From Mytilus trossulus (Eukaryota): a stretch of 64,000 nt of DNA. The translations under genes were made by a program, and so were the position numbers. Position 1 is the first letter of the stretch. Each line of letters opens with the position of its first letter. Below are positions 23,859 to 61,661 of the stretch, one piece after another. The notes under the pieces are model-generated. The model saw only the letters and a list, made by a program, of their open reading frames with translations. It ran no database searches and had not been told where the DNA came from. The stretch covers positions 60,078,001 to 60,142,000 of the forward strand of contig NC_086376.1 of assembly GCF_036588685.1 (NCBI RefSeq), in the 5' to 3' direction.

Positions 23859-23910
23859 ATGTTAACATTAATTATAAGTGTTTTAATTGGAATATTGAAC
23901 GGTGTTTTGG
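23859..23910 (+). CDS. Probable signal-peptide exon of the Ig-superfamily (Lachesin/IgLON-like) gene
   Basis: ATG at 23859 gives MLTLIISVLIGILNGVL(G), then the strong donor G|GTGAGT; phase 1 matches both 43678 and 55561. Linkage to the downstream exons is inferred. Confidence 0.65.
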
Positions 23911-29212: not shown

Positions 29213-29325
29213 AAAACAAATAATTTCTAGAGAAGTTTGAAATGTTTAGTAGATGCAGAAGCTAAAACAAATAATTACTAGAGAAGTTTGAAATGTTTAG
29301 TAGATGCAGAAGCTAAAACCAATAA
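29213..29325 (+). repeat. 51-bp tandem duplication
   Basis: aaaacaaataatt(t/a)ctagagaagtttgaaatgtttagtagatgcagaagct twice plus a partial third copy. Confidence 0.9.
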
Positions 29326-32300: not shown

Positions 32301-32434
32301 ATATAAAACCTGAAATATCGCCAAAACATTCAACAATTTGTATGATTACCAAGACCGCAATATTGAAGAAAACAAACTGAATGACCAATAACATATTCAT
32401 TTAATAACAAATAAAAGGTTATAATATACTCATG

Positions 32435-32735
32435 TTCTGCAGATCTTACGCAATCGAGCGAACGGGATAAAACGGTACACTAATACGTAGATCCTTGGCA
32501 AGCATAACTGAGCGAACGGGATGTAATACCACCCTAATATGCGGACCTTAGGCAAGCATGACTGAGTGTACGCGGACTATTGTCTCATTGGCAACCAAAC
32601 CACATCTTCTTTTTTACATATAACCTCATAATGTTATGCAGTTCGTTGGAAAGCACGATTAAGTGGACGGGCTATAATATCATAAGGTTATGCAGATATA
32701 AGGGGGCCACGACTGAATGGACGGGCTATAATCTT
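32435..32735 (+). repeat. Degenerate ~55-60-bp tandem repeat
   Basis: Recurring atgcagatc..gcaagcatgactgagcgaacggg-like units. Confidence 0.6.
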
Positions 32736-35249
32736 AGGTGATTGTGCCATCAACAACTTAGCTTTTGATCAAAAACGAAATTCTGGAAGAAATTGAAACA
32801 TTACTTAGGTTGCGGGGTCGTATCTGATGATGCGATTTTAAATGCGAATGCAAATGTTGACCAAATTTCCAATTTCGCTGCTGTCGAAACAAAATTCAAA
32901 GAATTAAAAATCGTAAAGTTTGATAAATTCCTGAAGTAAAACTATCAATGGTTTGCTGTATAAAATACAGCTGTCCAGTGTCGACTGATGTGAACCACTA
33001 AGCTAGGCTATCACCAAGAGCATCTACTTTATAGTTCAGTTATGACACCTTCGTTTATGATTTATTGTACTGCATTCGGTATTATGCATCTAATCATATC
33101 CCACCTTACAAACCTAAAATTATCTACTATCACTTCAAAATTGATCAACAGGAACATTCGGTATTATATTTATCTTATCACATCTCAACCTACAACCATA
33201 AAATATCAAGTGGCACCCACTAGTTACCAGCACTGTACCTAAATAAAAACAAGGATTGCCAATGAGACAAATATCCACAAATATTCTAAGCTTCGCGCAT
33301 ATATAGTTCCAACATTTAAAAAACCCCATGTCAACTTGATTTTTCTGATAGTATTTGCATAAGAAGAAAGTTAAGATGGTCGTGAATTTATTGTACATTT
33401 TGTATCATTGTTTACAGATATAAACATGAAATCGGTAACCTGCATTTCCATGTTTTACTGTGCTCTTTGGTCGGGTTGTTGTCTCTTTGACACATTTCCC
33501 TTTTCCGTTCTCAATTTTATGAAAATTATTAAAAACCGCTCCATAATTATTTAAAACTAACATTTAGCATATAGCGAAGAAATCTTAGCACACAATTGGG
33601 TTAATGCCTCATGGGTATCAGATATATACTGTTGGTCTATTTAGTGTGTGAGATTGAAGCTCTCATGCATTTAACTGAAACTCAATAGAGTTAAACGGTA
33701 TTGTTCCCCTTTCAGCCCATCATAAGAACGAGTTAAAGGACAATATTTTATTTAATAGTTGTTGTCGTTTGTTTGCTCCTTCGATTAAATGTATTCATCT
33801 TTTGTAAAATGCACTCTCACTGTTTGATTTACATATATGTTGTACATTTTGCAGATATTAATAAATGATGAATGTTTGCATCGGACGTAGTTCCTAGTGA
33901 GATAATGCACCCTCAAGATATCTGTCTGATTAGATACACTGTTATTATGTCACGTGTTATCAGTTTCAATTTAAAGTGTGCACGGCTATTGCAATTTATG
34001 TTCAGATCTGGGGTTGTTTTCACTGACACGTTCAAGGTTAAATCATATGGAACACATTTCAATATTTTTTCGTCGAGGTCTTCAAAATTATTCTGTATAT
34101 ACTTTACAGGCCGAATCTATTTTGTTTTCAACTCGACCGGAAAATAATCATAAGTGCGAAACAGGAAGTATTGCAATACTCGATTTCTGGAAGCATGTCA
34201 AATAAGTACGCACGTGACCATTTGATAGTCGGTAAGAAACTCAAGAACTTCGTGTGAATAAGAAAGTTTACGTCATTAAGATAAAAAAAAAGTGATATTG
34301 TACCAAAGAAATCAGCTTGTGGCAAGTTTTAATCTTTTTTAGTTGTCAACACTCCAATAAGTTGAATAACAAAGTTAAACTTGCATTAAAAACAAGACTT
34401 GGTTCAAACATACACCATAAAATTATATAATACCAATGTCGGGGACCACAGAAACAAAACCAGTCAAACGAAACTAGATAACAAGAACATAAAGGATGTT
34501 AGAATTACTGTACACAAATTTAAAGGATCATAACGGAACACATTTTCTTACTAATATTTGTATTATCATATTTTTTGTATTTAAATCTAATTATATAACA
34601 ATATATTGTATTTATCAATCTATTAATATCTAGTCAATGCCAACAGAGTTATGAGCAAATTTTCCACTTCAAAACATTTTATGAAGCGGGATGAGTATCT
34701 GTATTTATACATTAGACCGTACTGCACTGGTTACCGGAATTTTAGATCCACAAACCTAGGCACTTTTACCGGAGAAACAGGCTATATATGCCCTCAATTT
34801 TAGAACTAATTCATACATTTTGTAATATTCAAAACTACAAGTACAGAGTAGAAAAATATGTGTTCTACAAGGATCACCAGTCCTTCGCCTTTCATCTGAT
34901 ACCTTAACTACTAAGATATATGCTACATTCTCAACACTGGTAGTTTAAGATTCACCTTTCCATGTTCTTTTTTTCCTGGGCCGAATAGGTGGGGTTACAT
35001 CTTACAACGTCTATCCAAAATATTATTGTAAAGAAGTCTGGTCAATCTAGGCGTTTTAAACTTAGAGTGAGGTGAGAGTTTTTAAAGCTCTGTGTTAAAG
35101 GCCTCACTGTGACTTTGAGATGAGGAACAGCTATAGAAGCGAGTTTCCTTTGCTTTTTGTGTGTTTGTGCTGTGCATTTGAACTGATTGTGTGTCATGGA
35201 TGGATACCCCATATCCTTTGTTTTTCTATTCAATAGATTTTATGGTGTC

Positions 35250-35600
35250 AATAAATAAAAGCAACAGTAGTATACCGCTGTTAAACTCATAAATCCATGG
35301 ACCAAAAACAAAATCGGGGTAACAAACTAATACCGAGGGAAACGCATTTAATATAACAGGAGAACAACGACACAACACTAAAATGTAACACACACAGCAA
35401 CGGACCAAGCATCAGACAAAATACCACGAGAATAACAAATATAACATCAAAACCAAATACATGAATTTGGATAGACAAGTACCATGACACGTCTTATCGC
35501 AATGTAAATTTACACTTAAAAATAAAAGAAATCAAACGACGCAACGTTAAAATGTAACACACACAGAAACGAACTATAATATAACAATGGCCAATCATTA
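35250..35600 (-). repeat. Interspersed repeat family (also ~56070-56200 +, ~62043-62260 +)
   Basis: Shared tttccctcagtttt..gtttgtaacccggatt...cagcggtatactactgttgcctttatt segment in several copies. Confidence 0.65.
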
Positions 35601-37718
35601 ACCTTGTTTTCATACAGGAATAACAAACACAGGTGTGTCTGATTTGGTTTATGAAATGTCACCATTCGCATAGGTTTGGTCGCCCGAGTTCGAATGATAT
35701 TTAACCAAAAGGTTTGGTTTCCTAGATCTAATGGTATTGATCCTTTAGGTTTGGTCACCAAGATCTATTGGTAATTGTTCCATTTGTTCGGTCTCCTTAT
35801 TTTTATGATATTTGTCCTGTAGGTTTGGTCTCCGAGTTCTAACGATATTTGCCCTGCAGGTCTGGTCTTCGGGTTCTACTTGGTCCGATGAATTGTCGCT
35901 GTGCTTATCATTCTAACCTCAGTCCATCGATTCAGATTCAAAATTTCTTTTTATAAGATTGTATGCTCTCTATAATTCCAACAAACACAAACCTTTTATC
36001 TAATTCGAGAGTCATTATCCTAGCCTATTTAAGTGAGCGTTTTCGGTCATGCTAATGTTTGGCTGTGTTTGTGTACGTCCTCTACCTTATGATCTTTATT
36101 ATCTTCACCTCCACTCCCCCGCTATAGTCATTTGTTATTGTTGGTTGTGTTGTTTTTTCTATTCATCTTATGTGTTTGTTTTTTGTGAATACTTCATTTC
36201 ATTGTTCTCTTGTGTTACATTATCTGTGTATTAATAGAATCTTCTTGGCATCAGTATATCAGAGACAAGCAGTTAAACTGTCGCCATAAACAAGATGGTG
36301 TATTATGTAATCATATTCCCAAGACAATTACAGTCGTAGTAATAATATCCACTTTCAAATACTTAAGATTTACAGACATTTTTCAAGTCTACCCCCTCCT
36401 TGTGCTCTCCATTTTCTCAACTTTTCTTCCCGTCCTGAATGTTATAATTTCACTCCAAATATTTTACAATAAATAACCAATCAAATGGCCCGTACTACCT
36501 TTGAGTTCTTATCTCATATGATCACATTATAAATAATAGATATGTTAAGTTTTCAATTTTGGAATCGGTCAAAGATAAGATGGTATTATACCTTAAGCCT
36601 TATTCTTGGAGTGAACTTGGACGATAAAATATATCTGCAACAAAAAGCCTCTAGCAAATTTCGCTAATTTATACTAATGATGTATTCAATTTATATATTT
36701 GTAAGTTGCAATAAAGCTAGTATATTTGGGATCACTTACAAATGATCAGAGCACTATAATGATGAAATGTATAGTAATTGACAATGAAATTATCTGGCAT
36801 GTAGTCAAACACATGGTTAAAAATACTACAGGCCGATGTTTATAAGATGTTCAAATTTGTTATATGCATAATCAAAAAGCATGTCTGTTACTTGTGTTCT
36901 GACAGTAGTATTTTAAGAGAGAGGAAACATTTGTCAACAGTTCCCGACTTGTGTACGCCAGGGTATTTGGTGTAATAACTCGCTGTTTTTATAAGATAAA
37001 TCTGAAACCTGACTTGACTTTGATAGTCTTTAATAGTAATTTTTGTTTTCGAAAGAGCCGGGGGATGGGCTACTTGTTTGTAATCCTTGATACCAGCAAT
37101 GTTTTTTTTAAACAATTTAAACTATCGAAATAGTTATTAAAGGAGCAATATAGAACGTAACCAAGAAAAGAAATATACTAATACTTTAGTAATCACACAA
37201 GAACAGATGAAAAATAATAGACATGTCTAGTGTAATTCTACTGTTTTTAAAGTATGAAGGTTGGAAGGGTTAGACTCTCTAACGTTGTACATATAATTGT
37301 CTTGATTGTAACAACAAATGACATTTGTACAAAGAGAATTAGCTAAGAAAAATTATATCAACAGCACAACAAAGAGAATGTCAGAGTGAATTTCCTACAG
37401 GACGATCTTCTATTAAATGACTTTCATCTCTAAAAAATCATTTGTTTATCAAAAGTAATAACAATTATTTGAGCATAGCATCTTGGCATAACATCTTGGC
37501 ATAGTATCATCATTGACAGAGAAGCAACGAAATGTTTTCAATGCAAAGGAATATGAAAGTTGTCATACATTTGTTTGAAGTTTAAAGTGTAGCATCTGAT
37601 TTTGCCATATAATTAGCGCCTTTCCGTTTTGAATTTTCCTCGGAGTTCATGCATTATACTTTATACCCCCTTTTGTGACGTTAGTTCTCGTCATTGATTA
37701 GAAACATGCTTTCCATAT

Positions 37719-37910
37719 AATTTGGAAATTAGTATGGCGTTCATTATCACTGAACTAGTATATATTTGTTTAGGGGCCAGCTGAAGGACGCCTCCGGGTG
37801 CGGGAATTTCTCGCTACATTGAAGACCTGTTGGTGACCTTCTGCTGTTGTTTTTTTATTTGGTCGAGTTGTTGTCTCTTTGACACATTCCCCATTTCCAT
37901 TCTCAATTTT
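37719..37910 (+). mobile_element. SINE-like interspersed repeat, second copy
   Basis: Near-identical to 22429-22620. Confidence 0.7.
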
Positions 37911-37962
37911 ATCTCATTCTTTTCTGCACGATTGATTGCAAACGTCAAAGACAACGTATTGA

Positions 37963-38200
37963 ATTATAATCCTGGTAACTTTAATAACTATTTACACCAT
38001 TGGGTCGATGCCACTGCTGGTGGACGTTTTGTCGATGGTTTCACCAGCCCAGTAGTCAGCCACTCGGTGTTGGCATGAATATCAATTATATGGCATTTCT
38101 TTTTTTATTAATTTGCTGTTTACAAAACTTTAAATTTTCGAAAAAAACTAAGATTTTCTTATCCCATGAATCGATTACCTTAGCCGCATATGGCACAATT
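37963..38200 (+). repeat. Partial 356-bp-family unit without the hammerhead
   Basis: Matches ~57390-57620 (tgggtcgatgccactgctggtggac...ccagcccagtagtcagc). Confidence 0.75.
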
Positions 38201-39874
38201 TTTGTAAAGAACATTTTAACTGTATTTTCTGATATGTTCCGTAGAAATACTTCTGTAACAAACTTTTCAATTTGTGACTCTCATGTATTCATGTATTCGA
38301 CCATTTCAGTTTCAACCATACACTTAATAAGATGAAATTACCGAATCTGACACATTTTTAAGGCATTTAAACGTAAATGTATTTTCACATCCCGCTCTGC
38401 CGGGAAATCAATGCTTCAACAATTGTTTTATATACAAAAATACGAATTTAAACATTATTTTTTGTGTGTTTTTCTTCTGTTCATCATTCATGTAATGCAC
38501 GTAAAGCTATTTAAAACTACGAAACAAAACAAAAACAACTTTTAAATGATAAGAAAGAATTAACCTCTGCTCTTTTACTGTTTCTGATGCCAATGAAGTA
38601 ATTCAGCAAAGTGAAGTTGAAAGAAAATAGTTTATGTGTTAACTGGCTATTAAACTTCTCATACGTAATTAGCAGCATCTAACAATACACTTGGTTTGTA
38701 CCACAAACAGAACCTTACAAATACAGTGTATACTGAGATAAAATAAAATACGAGTGAATATGACAACGCAGCTATATAGCATGAGTTTTTATATATTTGT
38801 GGCTTTAACGTTCATAATTTCGATATCATGAGACAACAGTGAAACCACAACAAGCCGTTATATCTGATAGTTACATTATAATTCTATAATTCTGACAGAT
38901 TTCATATTTATAGTAGTTACATTATAATTTCATGTCAAAAATTTCGTTGTCTATGACGTTTGCAATTGATCGTGTAGACAAGAATGAGAGCATATTTCTA
39001 ACCAATGACGAGAAGTAACGTTACAAGAGGTTGGGGTATAAAGTATAATGCATGGTAAACATACTCAAAATAGAGTTTTAAAGAAACAAAGGACGTTTCA
39101 GTGATGAAATCATTGTTCTACAATACTATTGCTAAATTCAACACATTGAAACTAGACATCCAATAAAAAGTAAAATCACAAAAATACTGAACTCCGAGGA
39201 AAATTCAATCGGAAAGTCCATAATTAAATGGCAAACTAAAAAGCCCAAAGCTACATCAAAAGAATGGATACCAACAACGATTGTTGATATTATTTCTGTG
39301 AACACAGTTTACCTTTTGATAGAATACACTTTACACGGAAAGTTGCTAGTCTAACCAGGTTTTATGGCTCTCCCGGCTTTACTTCGCGTTTTTCCTATTT
39401 AGGTTATCCTTCATGACAGCATCACTCTTATCTTGTCTCATGTCAATATGATCTCTATCAGGAAAATGCACTGCTCTTTGACACTATAATTGTGATATTG
39501 TAGTTGGATATTCAAAATAGTTCAGCTTTCTAAACAAAAATCTTACATTTTGAAAGGGGGACGTTTTGATAAATGATATTATCATATTCAATTTCAAATC
39601 AAGAAAACAGAAGTCATTAGCTTGACAGAAACCAATAAATCAATCATTCACAGAATATTAACTCCGACAAGACATCTGCTATAATAATCTTTTTTAATTT
39701 TTAAATTCTTTTTTAAGGATCTTGATGTGTATGTAGGGATCATTAAACGAAACAGAGTAAAGATAAATATGTGAACTTTCTTGTTTTGATGTTTCCTTAT
39801 CATTCTAGAAATAATAAGGTTATAATCTGACGGAGGAACAAACTGAAGTCATGTTGACCTGTTTTGAGTTATGA

Positions 39875-40053
39875 AAAAAGTAAAATCACAAAAATACTGA
39901 ACTCCGACGAAAATTCAAAACGGAAAGTCCATAATCAAATGGCAAAATCGAAAGCTCAAACACATCAAACGAATGGATAACACGTTAACTGTCATATTCC
40001 TGACATGGTACATGCATTTGCTTATGTAGAAAATGGTGGATTAAACCTGGTTT
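39875..40053 (+). repeat. ~180-bp interspersed repeat (also ~1465-1595, 25795-25975, 39166-39270 on +; ~8755-8945 on -)
   Basis: aaaatcacaaaaatactgaactccga..aaattcaaaacggaaagtcc..atcaaatggcaaaatc recurs across the window. Confidence 0.75.
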
Positions 40054-40119
40054 TTGATTCTTTAAGTATTTAGTTTAACTTTATACTGATAGTGACTATA
40101 GTTAACTCAACACTTATCA

Positions 40120-42068
40120 TTTTTTATACGACCGCAAATTTTGAAAAAAATTTCGTCGTATATTGCTATCACGTTGGCGTCGTCGTCGTCGTCGTCGTCG
40201 TCGTCCGAATACTTTTAGTTTTCGCACTCTAACTTTAGTAAAAGTGAATAGAAATCTATGAAATTTTAACACAAGGTTTATGACCATAAAAGGAAGGCTG
40301 GTATGGATTTTGGGAGTTTTGGTCCCAACATTTTAGGAATTAAGGGCCAAAAAGGGCCCAAATAAGCATTTTCTTGGTTTTCGCACTATAACTTTAGTTT
40401 AAGTTAATAGAAATCTATGAAATTTTGACACAAGGTTTATAACCACAAAATAAAGGTTGGGATTGATTTTGGGAGTTTTATTTTCAACAGTTTAGGAATT
40501 AGGGGCCAAAAAAGGGCCCAGATAAGCATTATTCTTGGTTTTCGCACTATAACTTTAGTTTAAGTAAATAGAAATCAATGAAATTTAAACATAATGTTTA
40601 TGACAACATAAGGAAGATTGGTATTGATTTTGGGATTTTAGGTCCCAACAGTTTAGGAATTAGGGGCCAAAAAGGGACCCAAATAAGCATTTTTCTTGGT
40701 TTTCGCACCATAACGTTAGTATAAGTAAATAGAAATCTATGAAATTTAAACACAAGGTTAATGACCATAAAAGGAAAGTTAGTATTGATTTTGGGAGTTT
40801 TGGTCCCAACAGTTTAGGAGAAAGGGGCCCAGAGGGTCCAAAATTAAACTTTGTTTGATTTCATCAAAATTGAATTATTGGGGTTCTTTGATATGCCGAA
40901 TCTAACTGTGTATGTAGATTCTTAACTTTTGGTCCCGTTTTCAAATTGGTCTACATTAAGGTCCAAAGGGTCCAAAATTAAACTTAGTTTGATTTTAACA
41001 AAAATTTAATCCTTGGGGTTCTTTGATATGCTAAATCTAAAAATGAACTTAGATTTTTTATTATTGGCCCAGTTTTCAAGTTGGCCCAAATCAGGGTCCA
41101 AAATTAAACTTTTTTGATTTCATCAAAAATTGATAAATGGGGTTCTTTGATATGCCAAGTCTAACTGTGTATGTAGATTCTTCATTTTTGGTCCCGTTTT
41201 CAAATTGGCCTACATTACGGTCCAAAGAGTCCAAAATTAAACTAAGTTTGATTTTAACAAAAATTAAATTCTTGGGCCTCTTTGATATGCTGAATCTAAA
41301 CATGTACTTAGATTTTTGATTATGGGCCCAGTTTTCAAGTTGGTCCAAATCAGGATCTAAAATTATTATATTAAGTATTGTGGAATAGCAAGTCTTTTCA
41401 ATTGCACAGTATTGTGCAATGGCAAGAAATATCTAATTTCACAATATTGTGAAATAGCAATTTTTTTTTTAATTAGAGTTATCTTTCTTTGTCCAAAATA
41501 GTAAGCAAGAAATATCTTATTGCAAGATTTTTTTTTAATTGGAGTTATCTTTCTTTGTCCAGAATCAACTTAAATCTTTGTTATATACAATAAACAATGT
41601 ATATTCACTTTTTACTACCAACTGATAAATTTAAATAATCTTTACCATTCAGTGATAACAAGCAGTTTTTTTACATCATGTATTTAAATGAGTAGTAATT
41701 GTTGCAAACTCCATTAGAATATTTTAATTCAAATTAGTTTTGGAATAAGGGAAAGGGGGATGTGAATAAAAAATTGGGTTAAATTTTTCTCATTTGAAAT
41801 TTCATAAATAAAAAGAAAATTTCTTCAAACATTTTTTTGAGAGGATTAATATTCAACAGCATAGTGAATTGCTCTAAGAGAAAACAAACAATTTAAGTTC
41901 ATTTGAATACATTCATTCTGTGTCAAAAACCTATGCTGTGTCAACTATTTAATCACAATCCAAATTTAGAGCGGAATCCAGCTTGAATGTTGTGTCCATA
42001 CTTGCCCCAACCGTTCAGGGTTCAACCTCTGCGGTCGTATAAAGCTACGCCCTGCGGAGCATCTGGTT
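40120..42068 (+). mobile_element. Non-autonomous Helentron-associated (DINE-1/HINE-like) element, copy 1
   Basis: T-run; subterminal IR TTTATACGACCGCA (40123-40136) / TGCGGTCGTATAAA (42030-42043); partial IR after the left copy; (GTC)n; ~160-bp and ~130-bp internal tandem repeats; 3' hairpin GCTACGC-CCT-GCGGAGC; TT ends; no TSD. Confidence 0.88.
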
Positions 42069-43677
42069 GCATATGTTTTCTTCCAAAAACCACATGAGAT
42101 TTATTTCATCCATTGGGTGCAGATAATGGAGTTAAAACTGCTGACCCTTCAAACTTATTTTAGTTTGTCACCAATTTTTGTTTGGGTTAGTGATGCTCTG
42201 CAATCTTCATTTTATTGTGGACATTCATTTGTTTGTTGGTGACGGTCATTTCCATACTGTTTAATTTGTATTTAATTTTTCTTTTTTTTTTTAATTGTTA
42301 TCTTCTTCCCGCCTTTTTAATAAAAAAAGATGAAGGAATCTGAATTGTACTAAAGGTCCTGGTGATCTTATCTTGCCAGTGTTTACACCTCTTAATTTAT
42401 ATAAACACGAATTGTTCACCTAATTAACATTGGCATAGCTTTATCATTCTGTAAGGGAATGCATCATTTATTTTGATGGGTAGGTTAATTTAGATGTCAG
42501 ATTCCAATTTGACAGGGCTGCAGTTGTTTATAGCACTGTTATGCACATTGCTCCAGAGTCAGTTTTTTTGTACTCTGTTTTTTAACATCCTGTAACAAGT
42601 TGGCAAATCTTTGGCATTTCACACCTCCTGGCCTCCTTATTGAACTCTCAAATCAAATTGTTTGGCAAATGAAGCATAAACTATCTAAAAGGGTCAGCAG
42701 GTCTGTCAATCTTTAGAATGTAACTTACCATTAAAAGGTTATAACATCAAGAAATTTTATTCGAGAATGATGTTAAATTTTCAAAGTTTCTCAGCTCTTA
42801 AATGTATTGACAGCTACCAACCACATTATTTAGTGTCCTCACTTTTAAATAAATAATAATAATAATAATTTTATTTGCAAAAATACACCCATATGGGTCA
42901 AGCAAACACAAATACAACATTTAATATAGACAGATATAAATCTTGTACAACGTACAGTGAAAGCAGCCAATGTCAAAACTTTTTTCTACTTGAAGATTTT
43001 GTTTGAATAAGAAAGCTGTTTGGTATATCCAGGTTATATTATTAAAGGATATTTGCTACAAGTCCTCATACAATAGTTCTGTTTAGACAGGTTTCTTGTT
43101 TACATATTGTTTGCTTTACACAGGTTTTACTGTAATTACATACAAGCAATATCAGCTTCCAACATTAAAAGATATTTTTTTTGGATTTAATGTTTATGTC
43201 TTTGATAAGCTTGATAACTTTGTCTGTATTGGTAGACATGGTAGGTTGGCTCCAGAGGAGTAACCTCCTTAGAGATCACATGGCTTCCTTTTGATACTTG
43301 TTTATATTGAAGAATATTTCAAAGAAAATATCATTTTCAACACCATATTATTATCTCAAGTTAAAAGTATTTGTGACTGTGTCACATTCAAGGTCAAATG
43401 TTAAGTATGACTTTAGACAGTGCCACTTACAAACTTGAGTGTTTGGGTGTGAATTTAGATGTTTAAGAGCCTCTCAGTTGTTACATTCCAAATGACCTGT
43501 TTAATTTGATTGTAATTTCCTCTAATTCTAACCATCAGCTAGCATTTTATGTTTACCCTTGTAAGCTTGGTGTTTTGATAAGCTGAAAAGATATCTAAAT
43601 TTCGTGTACAGCAACTAAAAATTTAACATAGAAAACAGCTGTTGTAACAAACTTTTTTAAATCTTTGTGTTTTGCAG

Positions 43678-43867
43678 TTGGAGGACAACCCACCTTGAAT
43701 GTAGACTTTGAAATGAAGAATACCACCAAGTATAAAGGGGAAATTGTACGTCTCCGTTGTGAGATTTCTGGAAACCCGTTTCCCAAGTACAGTTGGTTCA
43801 AAGACAGCATAGAAATTGGAGATAAAGAGGACCGATTCAATGTGAAATTGACGCCATGGGGTTCAAG
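43678..43867 (+). CDS. Ror: ROR ectodomain exon a: Ig domain, first half
   Basis: (V)GGQPTLNVDFEMKNTTKYKGEIVRLRCEISGNPFPKYSWFKD...KLTPWGS(R); AG/GT; phases 1 to 2. Confidence 0.9.
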
Positions 43868-44839
43868 GTAATAATTTTTTGTATTTTCTTGTAATCTTTC
43901 AACATTGTGTATTTGATTTTTACAAAGATTTGGAAACTGCAGAAGATTGTAATCTTTCAACATTGTATTTTTGATTATTAAAAAGATTTGGAAATTTCAG
44001 AAGATAGTAAAATGAGTGATTGAAAATATAGTTTTAAAGTAAAGGTTAATTTTACTGTTGATGATTTAAACAAAGGAGGGATGCGAGAACATAAAATAAA
44101 CCATTTAGTGGATTAAGATAAATACAAAAATTGTTAAAATAAACTTTTGTTAAGAGTAAGAAAATAAACCAGATGTATTATCTCCTACAGCCTATAGATT
44201 TAAATTAGTCAAAGTAATATGGAGTTAATACAAGGATTATGTGTTTAGGTGAGGGATAGCTATCATCTGGTTGTAAGCAGTTATAAATCTGTTCATGTTG
44301 GCAATATTTAACATCTTTTGTATGTAAAATAAGCAAGCATGTTCGTAGTTTACTTTTTAGGTGTGCAGAAATGTAAACAATTTTTTCGCAAGATAGCAGT
44401 AACTGTTCTTATGCATTTCATTCTTGTAATTTATTTATCCATGAATTACATGCCACTGTACAGAAATGGATTCAAAACAAGCTATAATAGATAAAAAGCA
44501 CTATAACTTCTAATCTTAAATGTTGATGAAAAGACAAAACTAAATATTACAGACAAAAATCATCAAAAGAAGACATTGAAAAATAAATAACTGTTTTCAT
44601 AGTTTACATTATAAGTGCTCGGAACTGTAAACAATTTAATAACAACTGTGGCAACTGTTCTTGTATTTTTCATGCTTGTTGTTTTTTGTATTCTTGAACT
44701 TCATGCCATTGTACAGTAATGGTTTCAAAACAAATAATAACAGTAAATAGCTATTCTGAAAACAAACAAAAACTTAGCTAGGATGCTGAATTATAAAGAA
44801 CATTCAATTAGCAACTTATAAATTTATTTATTTTTTCAG

Positions 44840-44946
44840 ATTGAAGATAGAGAAATCAGTACCCCATGACAGTGGTTATTATATGTGTATAGCTGCTAAC
44901 AGGGCTGGAAACAAAAATGCTACAGCTTATCTACAGATCAAAAATG
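44840..44946 (+). CDS. Ror: ROR ectodomain exon b: Ig domain, second half
   Basis: LKIEKSVPHDSGYYMCIAANRAGNKNATAYLQIKN; DxGxYxC motif; phases 2 to 1. Confidence 0.9.
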
Positions 44947-45641
44947 GTAGGTCAAAGGGGGACAACTATTTTACAACTAAAGTAAATCATAAAGTTCTAA
45001 GATTCAGATTTTTATCTCTCAAACATACTGTTATTTAACAAGACAGTTACTAAGCTTCATGTATTCAGCACTATCACTTTTTTCTTCTTCAGTAATTAAT
45101 TTGAATTCTAGTATTTGCAAGCTTTATCCCATTGCTTTACTATTATCAAAATTAATAGGTATTTAAGATTCAGAATGCAATTTAAATTTCCATTTACAGT
45201 GCCACCACCTGCTTAATTTTAAGGTGGAGTCATACTAAATTATTTCTTTTATCTGTTTGAAAAGCATTAAATTAACATTTAAAAAATATCCCAATATTTA
45301 ATTGTTTTCACCTGCATTCAGCTGATAGTGTCAGAAATAGCTGAACATTTGTTAAGCTATAATGATAATAAGTTGGCTATCATAGTTCAAAGGTTATGGA
45401 GTTTTTAAATTCTTTTATATCTCCATTTGTGTTAAAAAAAACTCTAGTCCATAATAAAAATCTGTTAATGTGTAGTTTTTTGGATCCTCAAGCCACCAAA
45501 TTTTACCATATTATTTTATTTATTTCTAGTTTGTATTTCTTTTCAATTTTCTTATAAAAGATTTAATTTTATATCATTTCATAACCAATTAATACTGATT
45601 TTTACCTCTCTAATATTGTATTTCCACATTTTTTTCCACAG

Positions 45642-45729
45642 AACATCCTCCCAAAAAGGATAACAAGGGTGGAGGATCTAAGACTGATGTGGATTCATCA
45701 TTCCCAGATCTAGGGGATGATACAGATAG
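45642..45729 (+). CDS. Ror: ROR ectodomain exon c: Ig-CRD linker
   Basis: ccacag acceptor; (E)HPPKKDNKGGGSKTDVDSSFPDLGDDTD(R); AG|GTAAGT donor; phases 1 to 2, needed to keep frame between exons b and d. Confidence 0.8.
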
Positions 45730-46920
45730 GTAAGTTCAGTCAATACCAGGAAATATTCCATCTCTGGAATTAAAAGGTTGTTTATTTATACATTTGCATT
45801 CGACAAATGTATTCTTCAAACTGAACAGAATTTGGATTTATTTTAACACATGGTTCAAAGTCTATAAATTGATTATGAAAATAAGAACTCAGTTATTATT
45901 TTTTGTAAATTCTCTATAAATTTCATTTTGAATTAAAAGAAAGTAACAGTAAGAATATTTTTTACTTATCTTCTAATTAAATGAAGAAGTAGAGAAAGAA
46001 AGTGTATAGACTAATCTAAAAATGGTTAAATACTATGACCAAAAAACTTGTCTTAAGTTGCATTTTAAGATGGAAAATTTTCTTTAAAGATTTTCTGGAA
46101 AGTATGATCCAGAAATATATAAAAAGTAAGTAATCATTTTAATGGATTGAGGGTTTGCATGGCTTCTATTTACATTTTTTATCTTTTAATTATACTTTTT
46201 CCCTGACTATTTGTAGGATTTCATACACACTCTTTATATAGTTTTGATTGCTAGTGCTTTAAATTTTAATTTGTGAAAGATTTTTTGATTTTTTAATTGC
46301 AAATTATGAGGGGTCAGCAAGCATTTGCAGCTCTGCCACCCATCTTTTTGAATTAGTACATAAAAATTGAAAAAAAATCTGTGTAAATAGAAGCACATAT
46401 GAAATCCCAATTCTTAATTGTATCTATATATTGTCATCCTGCTTTTTGGCTATTCTGCGGCAGTCATTCATATGTTTATATATATTTTGATGGCTTGCAC
46501 TTGCCTTTTGTGAATTTTCTGTGTTTTCAATTACACTGCATTCACTATCCTCTTCTTTAAAAACTAATTCTATGTAAAATATTTCATCTTGCAGTGACTA
46601 GATCTGATATAAAATATTATTAAACCTGTATAATAATGGTAAAGAGCACGCAAAAGAAGAAAAATATTTAGAAATTATAAAAAACATTGCAAGATGAAAT
46701 TATTAAATTCTGTACATTTTTAGCTCTAATGTGAATCAATATTAATTTTCTATTTGTAACAATACTGTATTGAGTTAGCTTCAAGCTAATTTTTCTCAAG
46801 CTTTTTCCTAATAATGCTTTGCATAATAATTTTCATGTTCTTACTCTAAATGTAACAACTAATAAGACTATTATACAAGAGCTGTTGATCTTTACAATAT
46901 GCAATTAACCCATGATACTA

Positions 46921-47370
46921 TACAGTTAACCTGTACATGAGCAAACCTTTACACTAAATAGTTAACATTTGCCCAATGGAGTTAACCTTTACATTATACA
47001 GTTAACCTTGACACTTTATAGTTAACCTTGACACTTTATAGTTAACCTTTACACTATGACAGTTAACCTCTCACTATACAGTTTACCTTTACCTTTACAC
47101 TATACAGTTTACCTTGACACTTTATAGTAAACCTTTAAACTACAACAGTTAACCTTTACACTATATAGTTAACCTTGACACTATACAGTTAACCTTGACA
47201 CTTTATAGTTAACCTTGACACTATACAGTTAACCTTGACACTTTATAGTTAACCTTTACACTATAACAGTTAACCTCTCACTATACAGTTTACCTTTACC
47301 TTTACACTATAAAGTTAACCTTTACACTTCAGTTAACCCTTACACTAGTTAACCTTCACACTATACAGTT
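46921..47370 (+). repeat. 20-bp minisatellite
   Basis: About 20 units of gttaacctt(g/t)acact(a/t)ta(c/t)a. Confidence 0.92.
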
Positions 47371-48098
47371 ATACAGATTGAAACTAATTTAGTAGCATAT
47401 ACATGGCATAAATATGATATATTCATAAAAAATTATAAAACAAAAAAGACAGAAGAGGACATAAGACTTCAGACAATCAGTTGCACAAATTTGTAAATTG
47501 ATAGAAATGCACCATTCAAATCTTTTAATTATGAATATTTCAAATGTGTAATTTACTTTGATTTGACATAATTTACTAGTTTCATAGTTTATTAAAGAAA
47601 GCTCAGCCGTAGAAGACTGTGTAACAGGAGCATATTATACACAATATAAATCGCAACATATTTCATAATACATACAGCATACATTTTTGAATTATACATC
47701 TGAAATATGTATGTTGTACATTTGTATGCTCATATTATTTTTAAAGCATGTTGAATTTTGTGATAGTTTTTAGTTTGTGTATAAATGCATAAAGGCAAAT
47801 GCTTGCTGTTATCTGATCTTTACATACATTATACCTTAGAATAGAAATGGATATCAAAGAAACTATGAACAGGTTTCTCATTTATGGGAGGAAAGACATA
47901 TTTTAAGAGAAACATGTCAAATAAATGTATAAAATTGGGAAATAACATGTAAAATAGATGAACCAATCTGTTATGGTGATCGTATTATAATTGTCAATAC
48001 ATTATTAAAAAAAAATCATCTTTCCTAGCTGGCAAAATGATTTTAATGATAATATGGAGAAGAAAGAGATTAGAATTTCTGAATACTAACTTTTACAG

Positions 48099-48250
48099 AT
48101 TGAAAGAGGAAAGCAGTGGCAGTACTAAAGATGACAGCAATGGTTTCTGTCAACCGTTTCGAGGAAACATGTGTGCCAGGTTTATAGGCAATCAGACAAT
48201 TTATGTCAATTCTGAGTATGCTCAAGGTGTAAAGGAAGAAAAATTTATTG
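48099..48250 (+). CDS. Ror: ROR ectodomain exon d: Frizzled-like CRD start
   Basis: GFCQPFRGNMCARFIGNQTIYV, compared with vertebrate ROR1 [21 protein letters not shown] (recalled from memory); phases 2 to 1. Confidence 0.93.
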
Positions 48251-48777
48251 GTATGTATGAATTAGCAGTGGCAGAGTCAACACTTTTATCAACAATTTAT
48301 ACATGTTTTTCTGGGAAAGATTAGGGTCTGAAACTAGGAACCTGCATTCATTGCTTCAAAAAGTGGGGGTATACGGTTTTACCTCTGTCTGTCCAACCGT
48401 TATATAAATATTTTTTATCCCATGTTCTCCACTTTGATCAAGTGCTCTAAAGATAGAAACAAATGAAGCAAGATTAAATTTACAATTAATTGGCTTAAGT
48501 TTTATATCTACAGATGGATCACTTAGGCAAACTGACAGTGTCAACTAAGTAAAATTAAAAGATCTCCCTGATTGGGTTTTGGTCATGCAATGGGAAATTG
48601 GCCTATTTCCTTTTTTCCTGCTTCATGATTTATCTAAGGTACCAATCAGCTTTTACATGTTTAGATACTTTTTAGCTAATACTGTCATAGTAGAATGAAA
48701 AAGAGAATTGATGTTAAAAGGGACATAACTCAAAAAATGTACTGTGTAAGTAAAATATTGTATTGCAATCTTTTCAG

Positions 48778-48987
48778 CTGCTTTTACTGTGATTGCTGCC
48801 TCCAGTGATATGTCAGCTGAATGTCAGAAGTATGCCATAGAATTTCTATGTTTCTACACCTTCCCTTTATGTGATCGTCAACATATCAACCCTACCCCTC
48901 GTAAAGTCTGCAGAGACGAGTGTGAAATGCTAGAGGGCACTATCTGTAAAAAGGAATATGTCATTGGTCGACACCATCCAATGATTG
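48778..48987 (+). CDS. Ror: ROR ectodomain exon e: CRD core
   Basis: AAFTVIAASSDMSAECQKYAIEFLCFYTFPLCD...PRKVCRDECEMLEGTICKKEY; ROR CRD cysteine pattern; phases 1 to 1. Confidence 0.93.
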
Positions 48988-49747
48988 GTAAGTTTGCTGT
49001 TATATGGGTTGATATCTGATTATTGGAATATGATTTAAAAGTGGCCCTTTTTAATATGATGTACTGGTTCTTTTGGAGTACCCTTTGTTGTTCTTTTTTT
49101 TACCTTGATTTGTATTGTCTGAATTTATTTATGAGATTTGGACATCTGTTAACACCTGGTGCCTCTAGTTTTTTTAACTGAAATAACCTCTGATCTTTGT
49201 TAAAAAGTGAACACTTCTTGTAACATTCAATTAGAAGGAATACATGTAAAATCTTTTGTAAATAACTTCAAACAGACTTCAAACTGTTTCAGATGTAGTT
49301 ATATGGTTCAGTTTTGTTAACAGTTTGAAGGTTTTAAATACCAAAGCTCCTGACAATTATGTGTATAATAAAAAAACAAGGGATGTAGTGTGACAATTGG
49401 CTGTTTCAGAATCTAAAGCATCATGAGTAATTTCATTGTTCATACCCAAAAGTGAAAAGAACGTTATGTTATTGAATTTCCATTGTTTATAACGTTTTAA
49501 ACCAATCAAAACACTTTAGTGTACGTTTTTGAAAATATTACCCAGAATGCATTAGATTCTGAAACAGCGAATTCATGATGTTTAACCCTCTGGGCACTTG
49601 ACATAACCCAAAGCAATAGAACAGCACTTTAACTGCTATTCTTCATCTAGAAGTCATAATGAGACATAAAAATGGATCAAAAGCACATACATAACTCAGA
49701 ACTAGTAGTATCATTTGCATAATTAAAATATTTTTTTTTGTTTTTAG

Positions 49748-49855
49748 GAGAAGGTTTCCTTCCAAAGTGCTATGACTTACCACCAAGAGGTACCCCAGAG
49801 GGGGATAAATGTAAAGGTATTAATGTACCCATTGATCCTACACAACGACCAGAAG
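49748..49855 (+). CDS. Ror: ROR ectodomain exon f: CRD end
   Basis: (G)EGFLPKCYDLPPRGTPEGDKCKGINVPIDPTQRPE; LPxCxxLP motif; phases 1 to 1. Confidence 0.9.
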
Positions 49856-50464
49856 GTATGTCACATCCTTATAGAAAATTATTGTTTCGTTTTTTGGTGG
49901 TTTTTTTTAGTTGTGATTCACAAAATTGAAAAATTATGAAGTCAAGTATACCAGTCAAAGATTCTTTTGTTAATAATTATAGAAGCTATTCAGTTTGTAC
50001 TGAAAGGTTTTCAAAAAAAAGCTAGTTGTTGAAACACAAATTGCTTGATTTATGTTATTTGTAAAGTACATTGTACTATTGATAATCTGAAGAACACTTA
50101 AACTAATGCATTATAAACAATATATGGAAATTGTCATTAATAACACCACTAAAAGTTAGGTAACAGTACAATGAAAAAGCTTGATGAAATATTGGCAAAT
50201 TAAAGGAGAAAACTTGTTTTATAACTTTTTATTTTTTTTAATTAACGCTACATCTGTTAAAAGTTTCCATTCAATCAGAATTAAAATGGTAGACAATGAT
50301 ATGCCTAGTCAGACACTATACATTGTGATTATATTTTATTTTATTTTCAGACTTCTGTATTATGTATTTGCAAAAAGGAATTGTAACACGATTTTATACC
50401 TTCCTCTAATATCAATATATTGTGTGAATTTCTATGCTTATTTACTGTTTCCTTGTTTTTTAAG

Positions 50465-50590
50465 TTCACACATGTTATGGTGGTAATGGCATGAAATACA
50501 AAGGATCTATCAATCACAGTCGGTCTGGAAGGCCGTGTATGAACTGGAAAAATAATCCACATTTTAAAGGCAGTGAATATCCTGATCTAG
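50465..50590 (+). CDS. Ror: ROR ectodomain exon g: Kringle, first half
   Basis: (V)HTCYGGNGMKYKGSINHSRSGRPCMNWKNNPHFKGSEYPDL; CYxGxGxxYxG..SGxxCxxW motif; phases 1 to 1. Confidence 0.9.
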
Positions 50591-51456
50591 GTTAGTGGAT
50601 GATAAACAATTAAGAAAACAGACATCTATATGCCAAAAAGAGGCTTAAAACAAAGGCATCATCCATAAATTAAGCAGTGACTACCAAAGATGTGTATTGA
50701 GCAATTGTTTCTCTTGTAACTTCTTTTAGATTACTATAAGACTGACTTTATCTTCACATATGTTTAAAAAATAAAAGATTTCATCAAACATTAATGACAG
50801 TTTATTCAAACAAAATTCAACAAAAAAAGGATGAGTAAAGGGTGGCATACATGATCAACAAGCATCTTTGTCATAATCTAGCTCTTTATCACTGTAAAAA
50901 TGAGACATTAAAATCTAAATTGACAAAAACAAAATAGTACAGACATTGGGTTTAACTTGGGACAGACACATTAATTTATGTCTGAGTAAGAAAGTTTTTG
51001 TTGGTATAATCATCATATATCTGTATATTGATAAGTTTAGATTATTTCTATTCCATTCATGATCTATATATCATTCAGTGAAGCAAAACAAAGTTTTCTC
51101 TGCCCTGATAACAGGATTGCATAATATATTTTAACTACATTAAAATATCTTTATAACTGGTCTGAAACATGTAAAGATTTTTCAAATCACACAAAATTCT
51201 GGTTTTCCTGTCAATGTAAAATATAAATATGCTCATCTGATTTCATTCTCATTTTGCTCTCATGTCAAAAACATATGCATATGAGTATTTAAAATATTTT
51301 GGTCCGATTCATGTTCATGTTGAAAAGATTAGGGTTTTGACTGAGATTGGTGAACTGAACATGAAAATGTGATTGTGGGAGCAGGACATTGGTATCACCT
51401 ATGGAGTTGTATGGACACATATTCTTGTTTTTTGTTATATTACATTTATTTTATAG

Positions 51457-51561
51457 GAAACCATCACCTGTGTAGAAACCCAAATGGTACATATACAGGA
51501 CCATGGTGCTATACCGACCCTTCATATCATCATACAGAATTATGTGATATCCCTAAATGTG
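51457..51561 (+). CDS. Ror: ROR ectodomain exon h: Kringle, second half (last ROR exon seen)
   Basis: (G)NHHLCRNPNGTYTGPWCYTDPSYHHTELCDIPKC; CRNP..PWCYT motif; donor G|GTATGT, phase 1. Confidence 0.93.
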
Positions 51562-51568
51562 GTATGTA

Positions 51569-51820
51569 TTTTTATGCCCCTGTTGTAGCTGAGGAGGCAT
51601 TAAGTTTTACCCTTATCTGTATGTTTGTCCATCAATACGTCAGGATTGATTTCCATTCTCTAACTTTAGTTTGCCTCAACCAAATATTTTGAAACTTATA
51701 CACAATGTTTTTTACCAAAAAACTCAGTTCAAGTACAAAATTTGGATTGCATCACTTTTACAGGTCTTGAGTTATTTCCCTTTATAACATTACATGCACG
51801 AGGATCATCTGTGTCTCATT
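51569..51820 (+). mobile_element. Older, decayed HINE-like fragment
   Basis: Begins tttttatgcccc, followed by a decayed GTCY-like tract and a tctctaactttagt segment resembling the HINE internal repeat. Confidence 0.45.
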
Positions 51821-52001
51821 TATTTTAAAATCAAAAAGTTGAAGTTTATGGCAGGGATCATCTTGATCATTGTTCAAGACAGTCAACTATCAAAATGAAG
51901 TGCTGCAATAAAAGCACTGTTCCTATGATAACTGGTTATATGTTATTATTTCATGAGATTGTTGTCTTAGTACATCCATCTTGTATTCCAGATTTTCTTG
52001 A

Positions 52002-52057
52002 TTTTTATACGACCGCAAATTTTGAAAAAATTTTCGTCGTATATTGCTATCACGTTG

Positions 52058-52089
<32 letters not shown>

Positions 52090-53966
52090 CGAATACTTTT
52101 AGTTTTCGCACTCTAACTTTAGTAAAAGTGAATATAAATCTATAAAATTTTATCACAAGGTTTATGACCACAAAAGGAAGGTTGCTATTGATTTTGGGAG
52201 TTTTGGTCCCAACATTTTAGGAATTAGGGGCCAAAAAGGGCCCAAATAAGCATTTTCTTGGTTTTCGCACTATAACTTTAGTTTAAGTTAATAGAAATCT
52301 ATGAAATTTTGACACAAGGTTTATGACCACAAAAGAAAGGTTGGGATTGATTTTGGGAGTTTTGGTTTCAACAGTGTAGGAATTAGGGGCCACAAAAGGG
52401 CCCAAATAAGCATTATTCTTGGTTTTCGCACAATAACTTTAGTTTAAGTAAATAGAAAATAATGAAATTTAAACACAATGTTTATGACCACAAAAGGAAG
52501 GTTGTTATTGATTTTGGGAGTTTAGGTCACAACAGTTTAGGAATTAGGGGCCAAAAAGGGACCCAAATAAGCATTTTTCTTGGTTTTCGCACCATAACTT
52601 TAGTATAAGTAAATAGAAATCTATGAAATTAAACACAAGGTTTATGACCATGAAAGGAAGGTTGGTAATGATTTTGGGAGTTTTGGTCCCAACAGTTTAG
52701 GAATGAGGGACCCAAAGGGTCCAAAATTAAACTTTGTTTGATTTCATCAAAATTGAATAATTGGGGTTCTTTGATATGCCGAATCTAATTGTGTATGTAG
52801 ATTTTTAACTTTTGTCCCTTTTTCAAATTGGTCTACATTAAGGTCCAAAGGGTCCAAAATTAAAATTCGTTTGATTTTGACAAAAAATTAATCGTTTGTG
52901 TTCTTTGATATGCTGAATCTAAAAATGTACTTAGATTCTTGATTATAGGCCCAGTTTTCAAGTTGGTCCAAATCGGGGTCCAAAATTAAACTTTGTTTGA
53001 TTTCATCAAAACTTGAATAAATGGGGTTCTTTGATATGCCAAATCTAACTGTGTATGTAGATTCCTCATTTTTGGTCTTGTTTTCAAATTGGTCTACATT
53101 AAAGTCCAAAGGGTCCAAAATTAAACTTAGTTTGATTTTAACAAAAATTGAAATCTTGGGGTTCTTTGATATGCTGAATCCAAACATGTACTTAGATTTT
53201 TGATTATGGGACCAGTTTTCAAGTTGGTCCAAATCAGGATCTAAAATTATTATATTAAGTTTTGTGCAATAGCAAGTCTTTTCAATTGCACAGTATTGCG
53301 CAATGGCAAGAAATATCTTATTGCAAAATATTGTGAAATAGCAATTTTGTTTTTAATTAGAGTTATCTTTCTTTGTCCAGAATAGTAAGCAAGAAATATC
53401 TAATTTTAAGAATTTTTTTTATTTGGAGTTATCTTTCTTTGTCCAGAATCAACTTAAATCTTTGTTATATATACAATATACAATGTATATTCACTTTTTA
53501 CTACCAACTGATAAATTAAAATAATCTTTACCATTCAGTGAAAACAAGCAGTTTTTTTACATCTTAATATTTTATGATGTATTTAAATGAGTAGTTATTG
53601 TTGCAAACTCCATTAGAAATTTTAATTAAGATTAGTTTTGGAATAAGGGAAAGGGGGATGTGATTAAAAAAATTGGGTTCAATTTTCTCATTTGAAATTT
53701 CATAAATAAAAAGAAAATTTCTTCAAACATTTTTTGGAGAGGATTAATATTCAACAGCATAGTGAATTGCTCTAAGAGAAAACAAAAATTTTAAGTTCAT
53801 TAGAACACATTCATTCTGTGTCAGAAACCTATGCTGTGTCAACTATTTAATCACAATTCAAATTTAGAGCTGAATCCAGCTTGAATGTTGTGTCCATACT
53901 TGCCCCAACCGTTCAGGGTTCAACCTCTGCGGTCGTATAAAGCTACGCCCTGCGGAGCATCTGGTT
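52002..53966 (+). mobile_element. Non-autonomous Helentron-associated (DINE-1/HINE-like) element, copy 2
   Basis: Colinear with 40120-42068, same orientation and termini; differs by scattered substitutions and small indels. Confidence 0.88.
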
Positions 53967-55560
53967 GTCTTTTGTTAAGTTTATTTTTATTCTGAAACGG
54001 CATTGAACGATATTTTCCTCGCTGTTTTACCCGCAAATCTTAACCAACATATAACAATAAATGAGCATAGTGAACAGATATAATATATTACTATAATATA
54101 TCATAATAACTTGACGAAGTCTTTTTTACAAATGATTGTTTTTGTTAATGCATCTTTTGAATTTCCGGCCATGGCTTCATGTTCATTGATTAAACTTTCA
54201 CTGCACTCTTCGAGATTTACCAGATGTTTTGACTTGCTTGTATTTTTGAAATATTTCTTTCCTCGAGAGAATTTTATCTAAAAGGTTTAAAAATATACAG
54301 ATTGAAATGTATTCGTACATAATAACCTTAGCAATTACAGCTTATATAATAACTTAACAGAACATGTGTCATTTGTTTCTAACAGATTTACACTAAAACA
54401 TTTCTTCCAATCAGATAACGAAATACGAAAACAATAAAGTTATAACATTTTCATGATATCAATATTTGTAAAAATGAAAGCTATGTATAATTTTCTTAGA
54501 CGTTATCAGTGAAATCAGGTCGATTTTTTTTAAAAGTTTTTTATTTATCATAGAAAATTTGTGCACCTGCTTCCCAATGAATGTAAAACCCTAACATTCT
54601 CCTCGGGGATACCACGAATCTTATCTCTTTAGGAGTACTACATTGTATCATGGAATAAATTTTGTTTGCAACTGATATTTAAGTATCTTGATTAAAATCT
54701 TATGAACTGCTTTAAAATGCGCCACACCCATGTTTTAAACATTTTCTAAATGCCAAACGTTTTTTGTTATTAATAATGTTTTAATTGACGACGGTATTCA
54801 CGTCATGACTGTTTGATATCTTGATCAAGCCAACGACGTGAAACAAATATTCCATAGATTAAAAATTTGAAATGACATTCGTTACACGTATGGATATTTA
54901 AATTATGTGTTGATGATGCAATTGATAAGTATTTTTCGACTAACACATACTGATAACGCCAAGACTTAGTTTCTTTTAGCCTAATGTGTTCGAAATAAAA
55001 CAACAGCAGATTTCAGTATAAAAAAAAGAATGCATAAGCAAAATAATATAATCGAAAAAAAACCATTTTAACTAAAAATATCAGTTTTGAGGAATAAAGT
55101 TTGTTTTAATTAGTCGAACCAATCAAATGGTCCACTAAGTATTATAATTGAATTTCATTATGAAGCTTTTGGTTGTGTCTACATCTGCTCTGATAATTTT
55201 AGATGAATAAGTTCTAGGCACAACTCCTCTGCATGGCCGGTAACTAATATGTTTAATATTTTCACTCACACCTTTACTGGTCATTTGCTGCACTTCCTTT
55301 AAAATCAGATAAACTAGAAAATCAACTACGTTGAAAAATTAAAAAAAGTTTGGAAATGAGACAACGATACGCCAAATAATGCTATGCGCACTACTTGCCG
55401 GACACAAATTCATGCTGATTAGTTTACTGAAGAACCAACTATCAATACATTACATGCGTCCGAGTTTTTTTCTGAATTAACTTTAACATTTTCAAGCAAA
55501 CGAAGCATTAATAGCTAGTAACAAGGGGATATTTTTATTGTTGCATTTGTTTATTTGTAG

Positions 55561-55658
55561 GTGCACCATTTTTAAACTACGATTCTTTGACCATTACTTC
55601 TATAAAAGGAAAGCACGTTGTATTACCCTGTGTCGTCAAAAACTTAGGATTTTCTAGT
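55561..55658 (+). CDS. Lachesin/IgLON/DIP-like gene: Ig1, first half
   Basis: tttgtag acceptor; (G)APFLNYDSLTITSIKGKHVVLPCVVKNLGFSS; GTAAGT donor; phases 1 to 0. Confidence 0.87.
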
Positions 55659-61585: not shown

Positions 61586-61661
61586 GTAATTTCATTGTAG
61601 TATGCACATAACCAGACAAGGATGGGGCCAGACATATGGCTTCATAGTATATGACTGGGTT

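Follow-up and report, generated by a model that had tools for sequence, protein, structure and literature searches.

Why should some 10 kb of intron be almost free of CpG when the sequence around it retains this dinucleotide, and why should the depleted block begin and end at two copies of one transposable element? In this study, we have explored these questions in a 64,000-nucleotide stretch of Mytilus trossulus DNA (NCBI RefSeq assembly GCF_036588685.1, contig NC_086376.1, positions 60,078,001 to 60,142,000, forward strand), hereafter the window, in which coordinates are counted from the first letter. The block (42069-52001) lies between two same-direction copies of a HINE, a non-autonomous Helentron, within the first intron of an unrelated gene for a multi-Ig protein (the host gene). 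An earlier reading by eye (the original prediction) had proposed that it evolved in the methylated body of a parental ROR gene and is foreign to the intron. Our analyses indicate that the block is a fragment of ROR which lost its CpG before it came to lie beside the host exons, and we propose, tentatively, that it was brought there together with both elements as one rolling-circle unit.

The depletion is evident from direct counts. The block contains 43 CpG, an observed/expected ratio (o/e) of 0.19 at a G+C content of 0.30, and its flanks have CpG o/e of 0.77 (1-42068) and 0.78 (52002-64000) at a G+C content of 0.32-0.33; this composition, together with a GpC o/e of 1.00 in the block, rules out base composition as the cause of the trough. 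The hand counts of the original prediction (1 CpG in 45001-46020, 26 in 54001-55020 and 23 in 38401-39400) proved exact on recount, the first of these stretches being the most extreme kilobase of the block (o/e 0.05). A three-segment change-point fit over every C gave a log-likelihood ratio of 82.7, the highest value among 20 shuffles being 10.6, and windows of 9,930 bases outside the elements never fell below a CpG o/e of 0.73 (median 0.80), so the step expected at ~42.07 and ~52.0 kb is present. In unique sequence, taken 1 kb per side, the ratio drops from 0.69 to 0.20 across the left element and climbs from 0.16 to 1.24 across the right one. The step is real, but "sharp", as it had been called, is too strong a word: because the interiors of the HINE copies are themselves CpG-poor (o/e 0.21 in copy 1, 0.20 in copy 2), its edges can be resolved only to within these ~2-kb elements. 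Accordingly, the fitted start was 40256 without masking, and with the elements masked the boundaries fell at 39993 and 53992, their outer edges. TpG o/e (1.25 vs 1.17) and CpA o/e (1.34 vs 1.20) rise modestly in the block, where, on an o/e basis, ~137 CpG are missing and ~119 TpG and CpA are in excess; the excess that had been suggested as a check is thus visible in the ratios, but the raw TpG+CpA count differs from that of the flanks only at p = 0.07. Within the block, CpG o/e is 0.34 in exons and 0.15 in introns. Comparable troughs are absent elsewhere in the window at the ~10-kb scale, although a second, shallower CpG-poor stretch lies at its very start (1-2000; 14 CpG, o/e 0.32); another methylated gene body may terminate in it, and no exon was identified there.

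As to what the block is, a tblastn search with a full-length ROR query placed nine exons in it, covering residues 54-427 (Ig, Frizzled-type CRD and Kringle), one of which matches Mytilus edulis ROR over 69 residues with 100% identity. ROR residues 1-53, the transmembrane segment and the kinase gave no tblastn match in the 64 kb, where very short exons could escape the search, although an 18-residue host exon was recovered by it. On these alignments, the block is a set of internal ROR exons and not a complete gene. All nine exons have AG/GT edges, and their 1,122 nt contain no stop and no frameshift. With respect to M. edulis ROR there are 2 differences in 373 residues (L88F and A141N), which we considered as signs of decay and rejected as such: this number fits species divergence, the host protein itself differing at 7-8 of 313 residues from those of M. 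edulis and M. galloprovincialis. The ROR introns also contain repeats of their own, namely a degenerate 20-bp minisatellite of 24 copies (46890-47371), which is 21 bases longer in sequencing run X1, and three short high-copy repeats (48290-48500, 49395-49573 and 51600-51810). The second of these has terminal inverted repeats and has kept its CpG (4 vs 3.9 expected), so it may be young; the third, near 51650, resembles the 161-bp unit of the HINE, minus the CpG of that unit. In M. galloprovincialis, a 332-kb scaffold carries several partial ROR models, four of which stop at the last Kringle exon of the block; they probably reflect a fragmented or doubled assembly, the alternative being a similar partial copy.

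The host gene is on the same strand as the ROR exons, and its six exons in the window agree with a M. trossulus protein at 313 of 313 residues. Its CpG o/e is ~0.75 in exons, and 0.80 and 1.09 in intron 1 to the left and right of the insert, respectively. The claim that the block is foreign to this intron was borne out, as only ROR residues 54-427 are found here, the host orthologues of three Mytilus species are without the ROR exons, and ROR and the host gene are on different chromosomes in all three congeners for which both are listed (on sequences of 126.3 and 100.1 Mb in M. edulis, 133.1 and 104.9 Mb in M. galloprovincialis, and 142.4 and 132.2 Mb in M. californianus). Read through in order, the first host exon, the nine from ROR and host exons 2-6 give 687 stop-free codons. 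We rejected this preserved frame as a sign of selection: 7 of the 10 intron positions in the block are in phase 1, which makes a shared frame a matter of about even odds. In front of host exon 6, three copies of a 65-bp unit (61127-61319) take in the splice acceptor and thereby offer three candidate AG sites; as 65 is not divisible by 3, splicing at those farther upstream would put the exon out of frame or introduce stops.

Was the depletion inherited from ROR? Contigs from 4 of 24 runs (X1, X2, X3 and X6, with three organism labels and no RNA run) were compared over 42030-57050. The comparison rests on the 32 pieces listed, beside which the runs gave a further 189,160 pieces, 6,401 loose ends and 1,203 joints. 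We take these pieces to be native ROR, because every mussel carries ROR and their depth is host-like, though some may come from carriers of the same insert. They differ from the block at 24 of 2,337 bases in X1 (1.0%, a minisatellite piece excluded), 141 of 5,003 in X2 (2.8%), 101 of 3,204 in X3 (3.2%) and 289 of 4,207 in X6 (6.9%), and the host pieces listed differ from the window by 1.4% (X1), 3.7% (X3) and 4.9% (X6); by this measure, the block falls within the spread of ROR alleles. Run X1 could derive from the source sample itself, and so not be independent. The four pieces from other runs that have at most 6 differences hold 4 CpG where 29 would be expected at the flank rate, and would hold at most 17 even if each of their 13 differences made one (p = 0.012). 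At 36 low-copy block sites among the 40 listed (of which there are 1,041 others), the other allele gains a CpG at 2 and loses one at 2. Because some closely matching alleles of other mussels can be shown to be CpG-poor as well, we read the depletion as older than the juxtaposition. In M. californianus, gene-body methylation is correlated with CpG o/e (rho -0.617; 10.1101/2025.08.27.672726), and by analogy the loss is likely the scar of germline gene-body methylation at the parent ROR. The original prediction of a methylated parental body thus stands for the age of the depletion, with methylation as its cause argued from this relation. Its further claim, that the CpG step independently supports juxtaposition, is sustained only in part, since any ROR-derived block would show the step, by whatever route it arrived.

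The bracketing elements can be assigned to the HINEs by their subterminal inverted repeats (subTIRs), inner repeat, arrays and abundance. The subTIR pairs are perfect over 14 bp in both copies, where 11-15 bp near both ends is the mark of the group; the 5' hairpin that pairs with the subTIR has fold z-scores of -2.1 and -1.8; and each copy has a microsatellite, (CGT)9.3 or (CGT)10.3, followed by two central tandem arrays (3.8-3.9 units of 161 bp and 3-4 units of 126-135 bp). By eye, a 17-nt imperfect hairpin can be made out 6 nt from the 3' end of copy 1, while the folded 56-nt 3' ends prefer a pairing other than this palindrome and are not above shuffles (z -1.2 and -1.6). The longest stop-to-stop frame is 154 codons, so the copies appear to hold no Rep/Helicase gene. 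The 3' end of copy 2 recurs as loose ends at 53966 in 105 contigs of X2 and 90 of X3, with diverse flanks behind, and the summed contig depth of the family in X1 is ~1.4 million against ~50 for single-copy sequence, a sum that is not a copy number. The two copies are 94.9% identical over 1,942 aligned bases, with 25 of 30 CpG in common and perfect (CGT)n tracts. They are most readily taken for independent insertions, both young, because they are 5.1% apart, which is more than the block is from the X1-X3 alleles, and have no mismatch-free tract longer than 101 bp; the duplication of one HINE on arrival was rejected on the same 5.1%. At each of the four junctions the element ends exactly, next to a T-run, and no target duplication was seen; the inner two therefore probably arose when HINEs inserted into ROR introns. 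In run X3, some family members have a loose end at 53686, apparently a second HINE-like 5' end inside the element, which suggests nested HINE insertions.

The explanation that we hold to be the best, although we would give it slightly less than an even chance, is that a ROR allele carrying two same-direction HINEs was copied as one composite rolling-circle unit into the host intron. Germline methylation of the ROR body would have eroded CpG to an o/e of ~0.2 while the host intron stayed at ~0.8. Two HINEs, whose ends are exact today, would then have landed in ROR introns ~10 kb apart. A Helentron Rep/Helicase could have started at the 5' end of copy 1, bypassed its putative 3' hairpin and stopped at that of copy 2, the resulting 13.8-kb unit entering a T-run of the host intron. 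The frame and splice sites are intact, and the ROR exons are predicted to splice into the host transcript. What we find at the locus is the arrangement that such an event leaves: ROR DNA is enclosed by two elements of the same orientation, the outer ends of which are intact. Precedents lie in the capture of KCNQ5 sequence through end-bypass by HelibatN539 in bats (PMC4224331), and in the composite transposition that has been proposed for HINEs (PMC4067079).

Several observations weigh against this explanation. None of the 32 pieces listed bridges 42067, 52001 or 53966, an absence that is uninformative because the repeat filled the lists of joints and loose ends, and among the same pieces neither an empty host site nor a two-HINE donor allele was seen. 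The block is unamplified, with host-like depth in all four runs (block/host ratios, in themselves not usable, of 1.21 in X1, 1.60 in X2, 1.12 in X3 and 1.67 in X6, X1 being no higher than the others). No fused protein occurs in 6 CRD-exon clusters (122-2000 residues) or 2 host-exon clusters (176-2000 residues), and no M. trossulus ROR is among the 15 listed of 17 named members, leaving an intact conspecific parent unseen. Transitions at CpG contexts are not enriched (4 of 19, p = 0.31, in the small sample of 36 sites), and gene capture by HINEs is reported to be infrequent (PMC4067079). Searches elsewhere were also negative: an exact look-up found none of nine window frames in the collection (a result that is uninformative in the absence of a positive control), a ROR alignment scan of metagenomes gave 329 pattern matches and no confirmed one, and Mytilus ROR without its ectodomain (540-1719 residues) formed no separate cluster among 57, although it could hide inside the main cluster.

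Could the locus instead be the product of assembly, in which a native two-HINE ROR allele was joined to the host intron via a third copy, by two mis-joins or one gap-filling read, so that the CpG step is an in-silico splice of two loci? This would account for the lack of a bridging contig among the pieces listed, for exons free of stops and frameshifts, as a native allele would have, and for the lack of a fused protein on record, the M. trossulus host models also skipping the ROR exons. It is also consistent with the X1 pieces that show no difference from the window (410 and 417 bp in the block, 539 bp in the host), all of which have depths of 19.5-21.9, and with a summed X1 depth of 41-48 at 50547-51548, which in these two block bins fits two copies only. 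Against it, two errors would be needed through 1.95-kb repeats that are 95% alike, and the 64 kb contain not one N. Long reads span repeats of this length, though the read type behind the window may differ. Furthermore, window-like block contigs of X1 have depths of 17.7-19.5, alternatives 37.9 and collapsed ones 57.7. Such a 1:2 ratio is what two native copies and an additional one would give, but we treat it as no more than a hint, as a host bin also shows ~22:38. All four runs have a non-window letter at 15 of 36 sites, which suits an uncommon allele, and at position 43779 all four have the C that encodes Leu, with the F88 base shown by none. Taken together, we regard an artefact as unlikely and the HINE-ROR-HINE structure as quite probably real, and the caveat of the original prediction, that the CpG step cannot separate a real event from a mis-assembly, still applies after the read and contig searches.

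If the structure is real, recombination offers another route to it, less probable than the composite unit yet ahead of an artefact: the host intron would have held a HINE, and a break in it would have been repaired from a two-HINE ROR allele by strand invasion over a long tract, or a HINE-ROR circle would have integrated there. Both HINE copies would then be hybrids with the same inherited CpG footprint and equally canonical junctions, and the HINE-ROR-HINE picture is identical to that left by composite transposition. The abundance of the family provides homologous partners everywhere, and a single, unamplified copy fits. On the other hand, the partners are merely ~95% alike, overlapping crossovers could have left a long common tract where the longest is that of 101 bp (a weak point), and the required third HINE at the host site was seen neither in the pieces listed nor in a host-flank pattern scan of metagenomes (0 matches). 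Far less credible is a loss of CpG in place, either in a HINE-bounded domain methylated after insertion or in a native, interleaved ROR gene. The boundaries of the trough do coincide with the elements, and between the HINE copies transitions affect 4 of 68 CpG positions vs 37 of 1,874 others, a somewhat higher rate (p = 0.053). Yet the depletion is common to the alleles of other mussels, a 76% CpG loss at 1-3% divergence from living alleles would imply an implausible rate, the HINE copies have kept the CpG and perfect (CGT)n described above, and the remaining ROR is absent from the 64 kb and on another chromosome in three congeners.

Several known systems resemble parts of what we propose here. 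The CpG pattern recalls the mosaic gene-body methylation of molluscs, exemplified by the M. californianus methylome (10.1101/2025.08.27.672726), in that a conserved signalling gene is CpG-low with normal GpC and its neighbours are at ~0.8; unlike that pattern, the low-CpG domain is here a gene fragment with transposon edges in the intron of a CpG-retaining gene, and is known from sequence alone. As described for HelibatN539 and KCNQ5 (PMC4224331), two elements that point the same way enclose gene DNA, one contributing the 5' end of the unit and the other its 3' end; the differences are that ours are Helentron-type HINEs, both full length, with an unamplified 9.9-kb cargo of nine in-frame exons. 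With HINE/DINE-1 elements, the oyster Cg_HINE and MgE of M. galloprovincialis, the last likened by description (PMC4067079, PMC7492417), our copies have in common the subTIRs, inner inverted repeat, microsatellite, a pair of successive central arrays (with a unit of ~160 bp in one) and T-rich sites, to which the putative 3' palindrome may be added. The same sources place DINE-1 at breakpoints of gene duplicates, report little capture inside the elements themselves and, for composite transposition, offer a proposal (PMC4067079, PMC7492417). The locus is also similar to the hemizygous structural variation of Mytilus, where heterozygosity in the genome is 1.73% and insertions of up to 30 kb are reported, in that it is a large, low-copy, exon-bearing insertion of this size class. 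It differs in that the cargo was taken from a core single-copy gene and not from a dispensable family; that study left open what part transposons play in the insertion polymorphism of mussels (PMC7653742). Rolling-circle elements are reported to be abundant in bivalves (PMC10294476). Within an incomplete coverage of the literature, we found no HINE-bracketed multi-exon cassette in a bivalve and no report on this ROR/multi-Ig locus.

The CpG pattern is thus textbook mosaic methylation, and composite capture is already known; the interest is in CpG as a provenance stamp on possible in-frame exon shuffling. In mosaically methylated genomes, steps in CpG o/e, a property of the bare sequence, can reveal mis-joins or parts of genes that have moved recently. 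If real, the locus would illustrate with unusual completeness the composite transposition that has been proposed for HINEs, in a genus whose large insertion polymorphisms are of open origin. It would also represent a natural transplant, methylated gene-body DNA set into an intron that lacks methylation, so that 5-methylcytosine on the copy, as compared with the parent ROR, would show whether the sequence itself or the transcription unit around it determines gene-body methylation in invertebrates. Should it prove an artefact, the mussel assembly, though of reference grade, contains a mis-join here. A real insert is also predicted to give a fused transcript of ~1,180 codons (808 + 374), encoding a signal peptide, the ROR ectodomain, an Ig stalk and a hydrophobic tail; the CRD presumably binds Wnt, and the tail may be a GPI-type (glycosylphosphatidylinositol) anchor. 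That the composite HINE has, in live exon shuffling, put the whole ROR ectodomain in frame behind the multi-Ig signal peptide, to yield a kinase-less Wnt decoy of ~1,180 residues, is an idea that we judge improbable.

Table 1. Features of the insert and of the host gene, in window coordinates.
Feature	Position	Strand	Details
Host exon 1, coding	23859..23910	+	52 nt, signal-peptide-like, phase 1 donor
Host intron 1	23911..55560	+	holds 13.8-kb HINE-ROR-HINE insert
HINE copy 1	40121..42066	+	1,946 bp
HINE copy 1, parts			5' subTIR 40123-40136; inner inverted repeat to ~40162; (CGT)n 40178-40205
HINE copy 1, arrays			161-bp array 40218-40819; 126-135-bp array 40829-41365
HINE copy 1, 3' end			subTIR 42030-42043; putative hairpin 42044-42060; then TT
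CpG-depleted block, ROR introns and exons	42069..52001	.	CpG counts, change-point fit
ROR exon, Ig part 1	43678..43867	+	tblastn; starts phase 1; carries L88F
ROR exon, Ig part 2	44840..44946	+	tblastn; carries A141N
ROR exon, linker	45642..45729	+	tblastn
ROR exon, linker, 36 nt	46090..46125	+	tblastn
ROR exon, CRD (Fz) start	48099..48250	+	tblastn
ROR exon, CRD	48778..48987	+	tblastn, Pfam Fz
ROR exon, CRD end	49748..49855	+	tblastn
ROR exon, Kringle part 1	50465..50590	+	tblastn
ROR exon, Kringle end	51457..51561	+	tblastn; ends phase 1
HINE copy 2	52002..53964	+	1,963 bp; direct repeat of copy 1
HINE copy 2, parts			subTIRs 52004-52017, 53928-53941; putative hairpin 53942-53958; then TT
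Host coding exons 2-6	55561-55658, 56263-56464, 56826-56984, 59872-60000, 61286-61585	+	

Outside the insert, a few other features of the window can be described. Two open frames on the minus strand at 3874-4937, for which Pfam gave one weak unrelated match, resemble what we take to be decayed pieces of a non-LTR (long terminal repeat) retrotransposon. Just upstream of the host gene, a large carboxylesterase exon lies on the plus strand at 19513-20565 (Pfam COesterase, E 5e-43; CpG o/e 0.78). A host intron contains 2.9 copies of a 356-bp unit at 57095-58135 (98% identity, CpG o/e 1.07), of which partial copies in both directions are found near 10549, 11307, 15000 and 37955.

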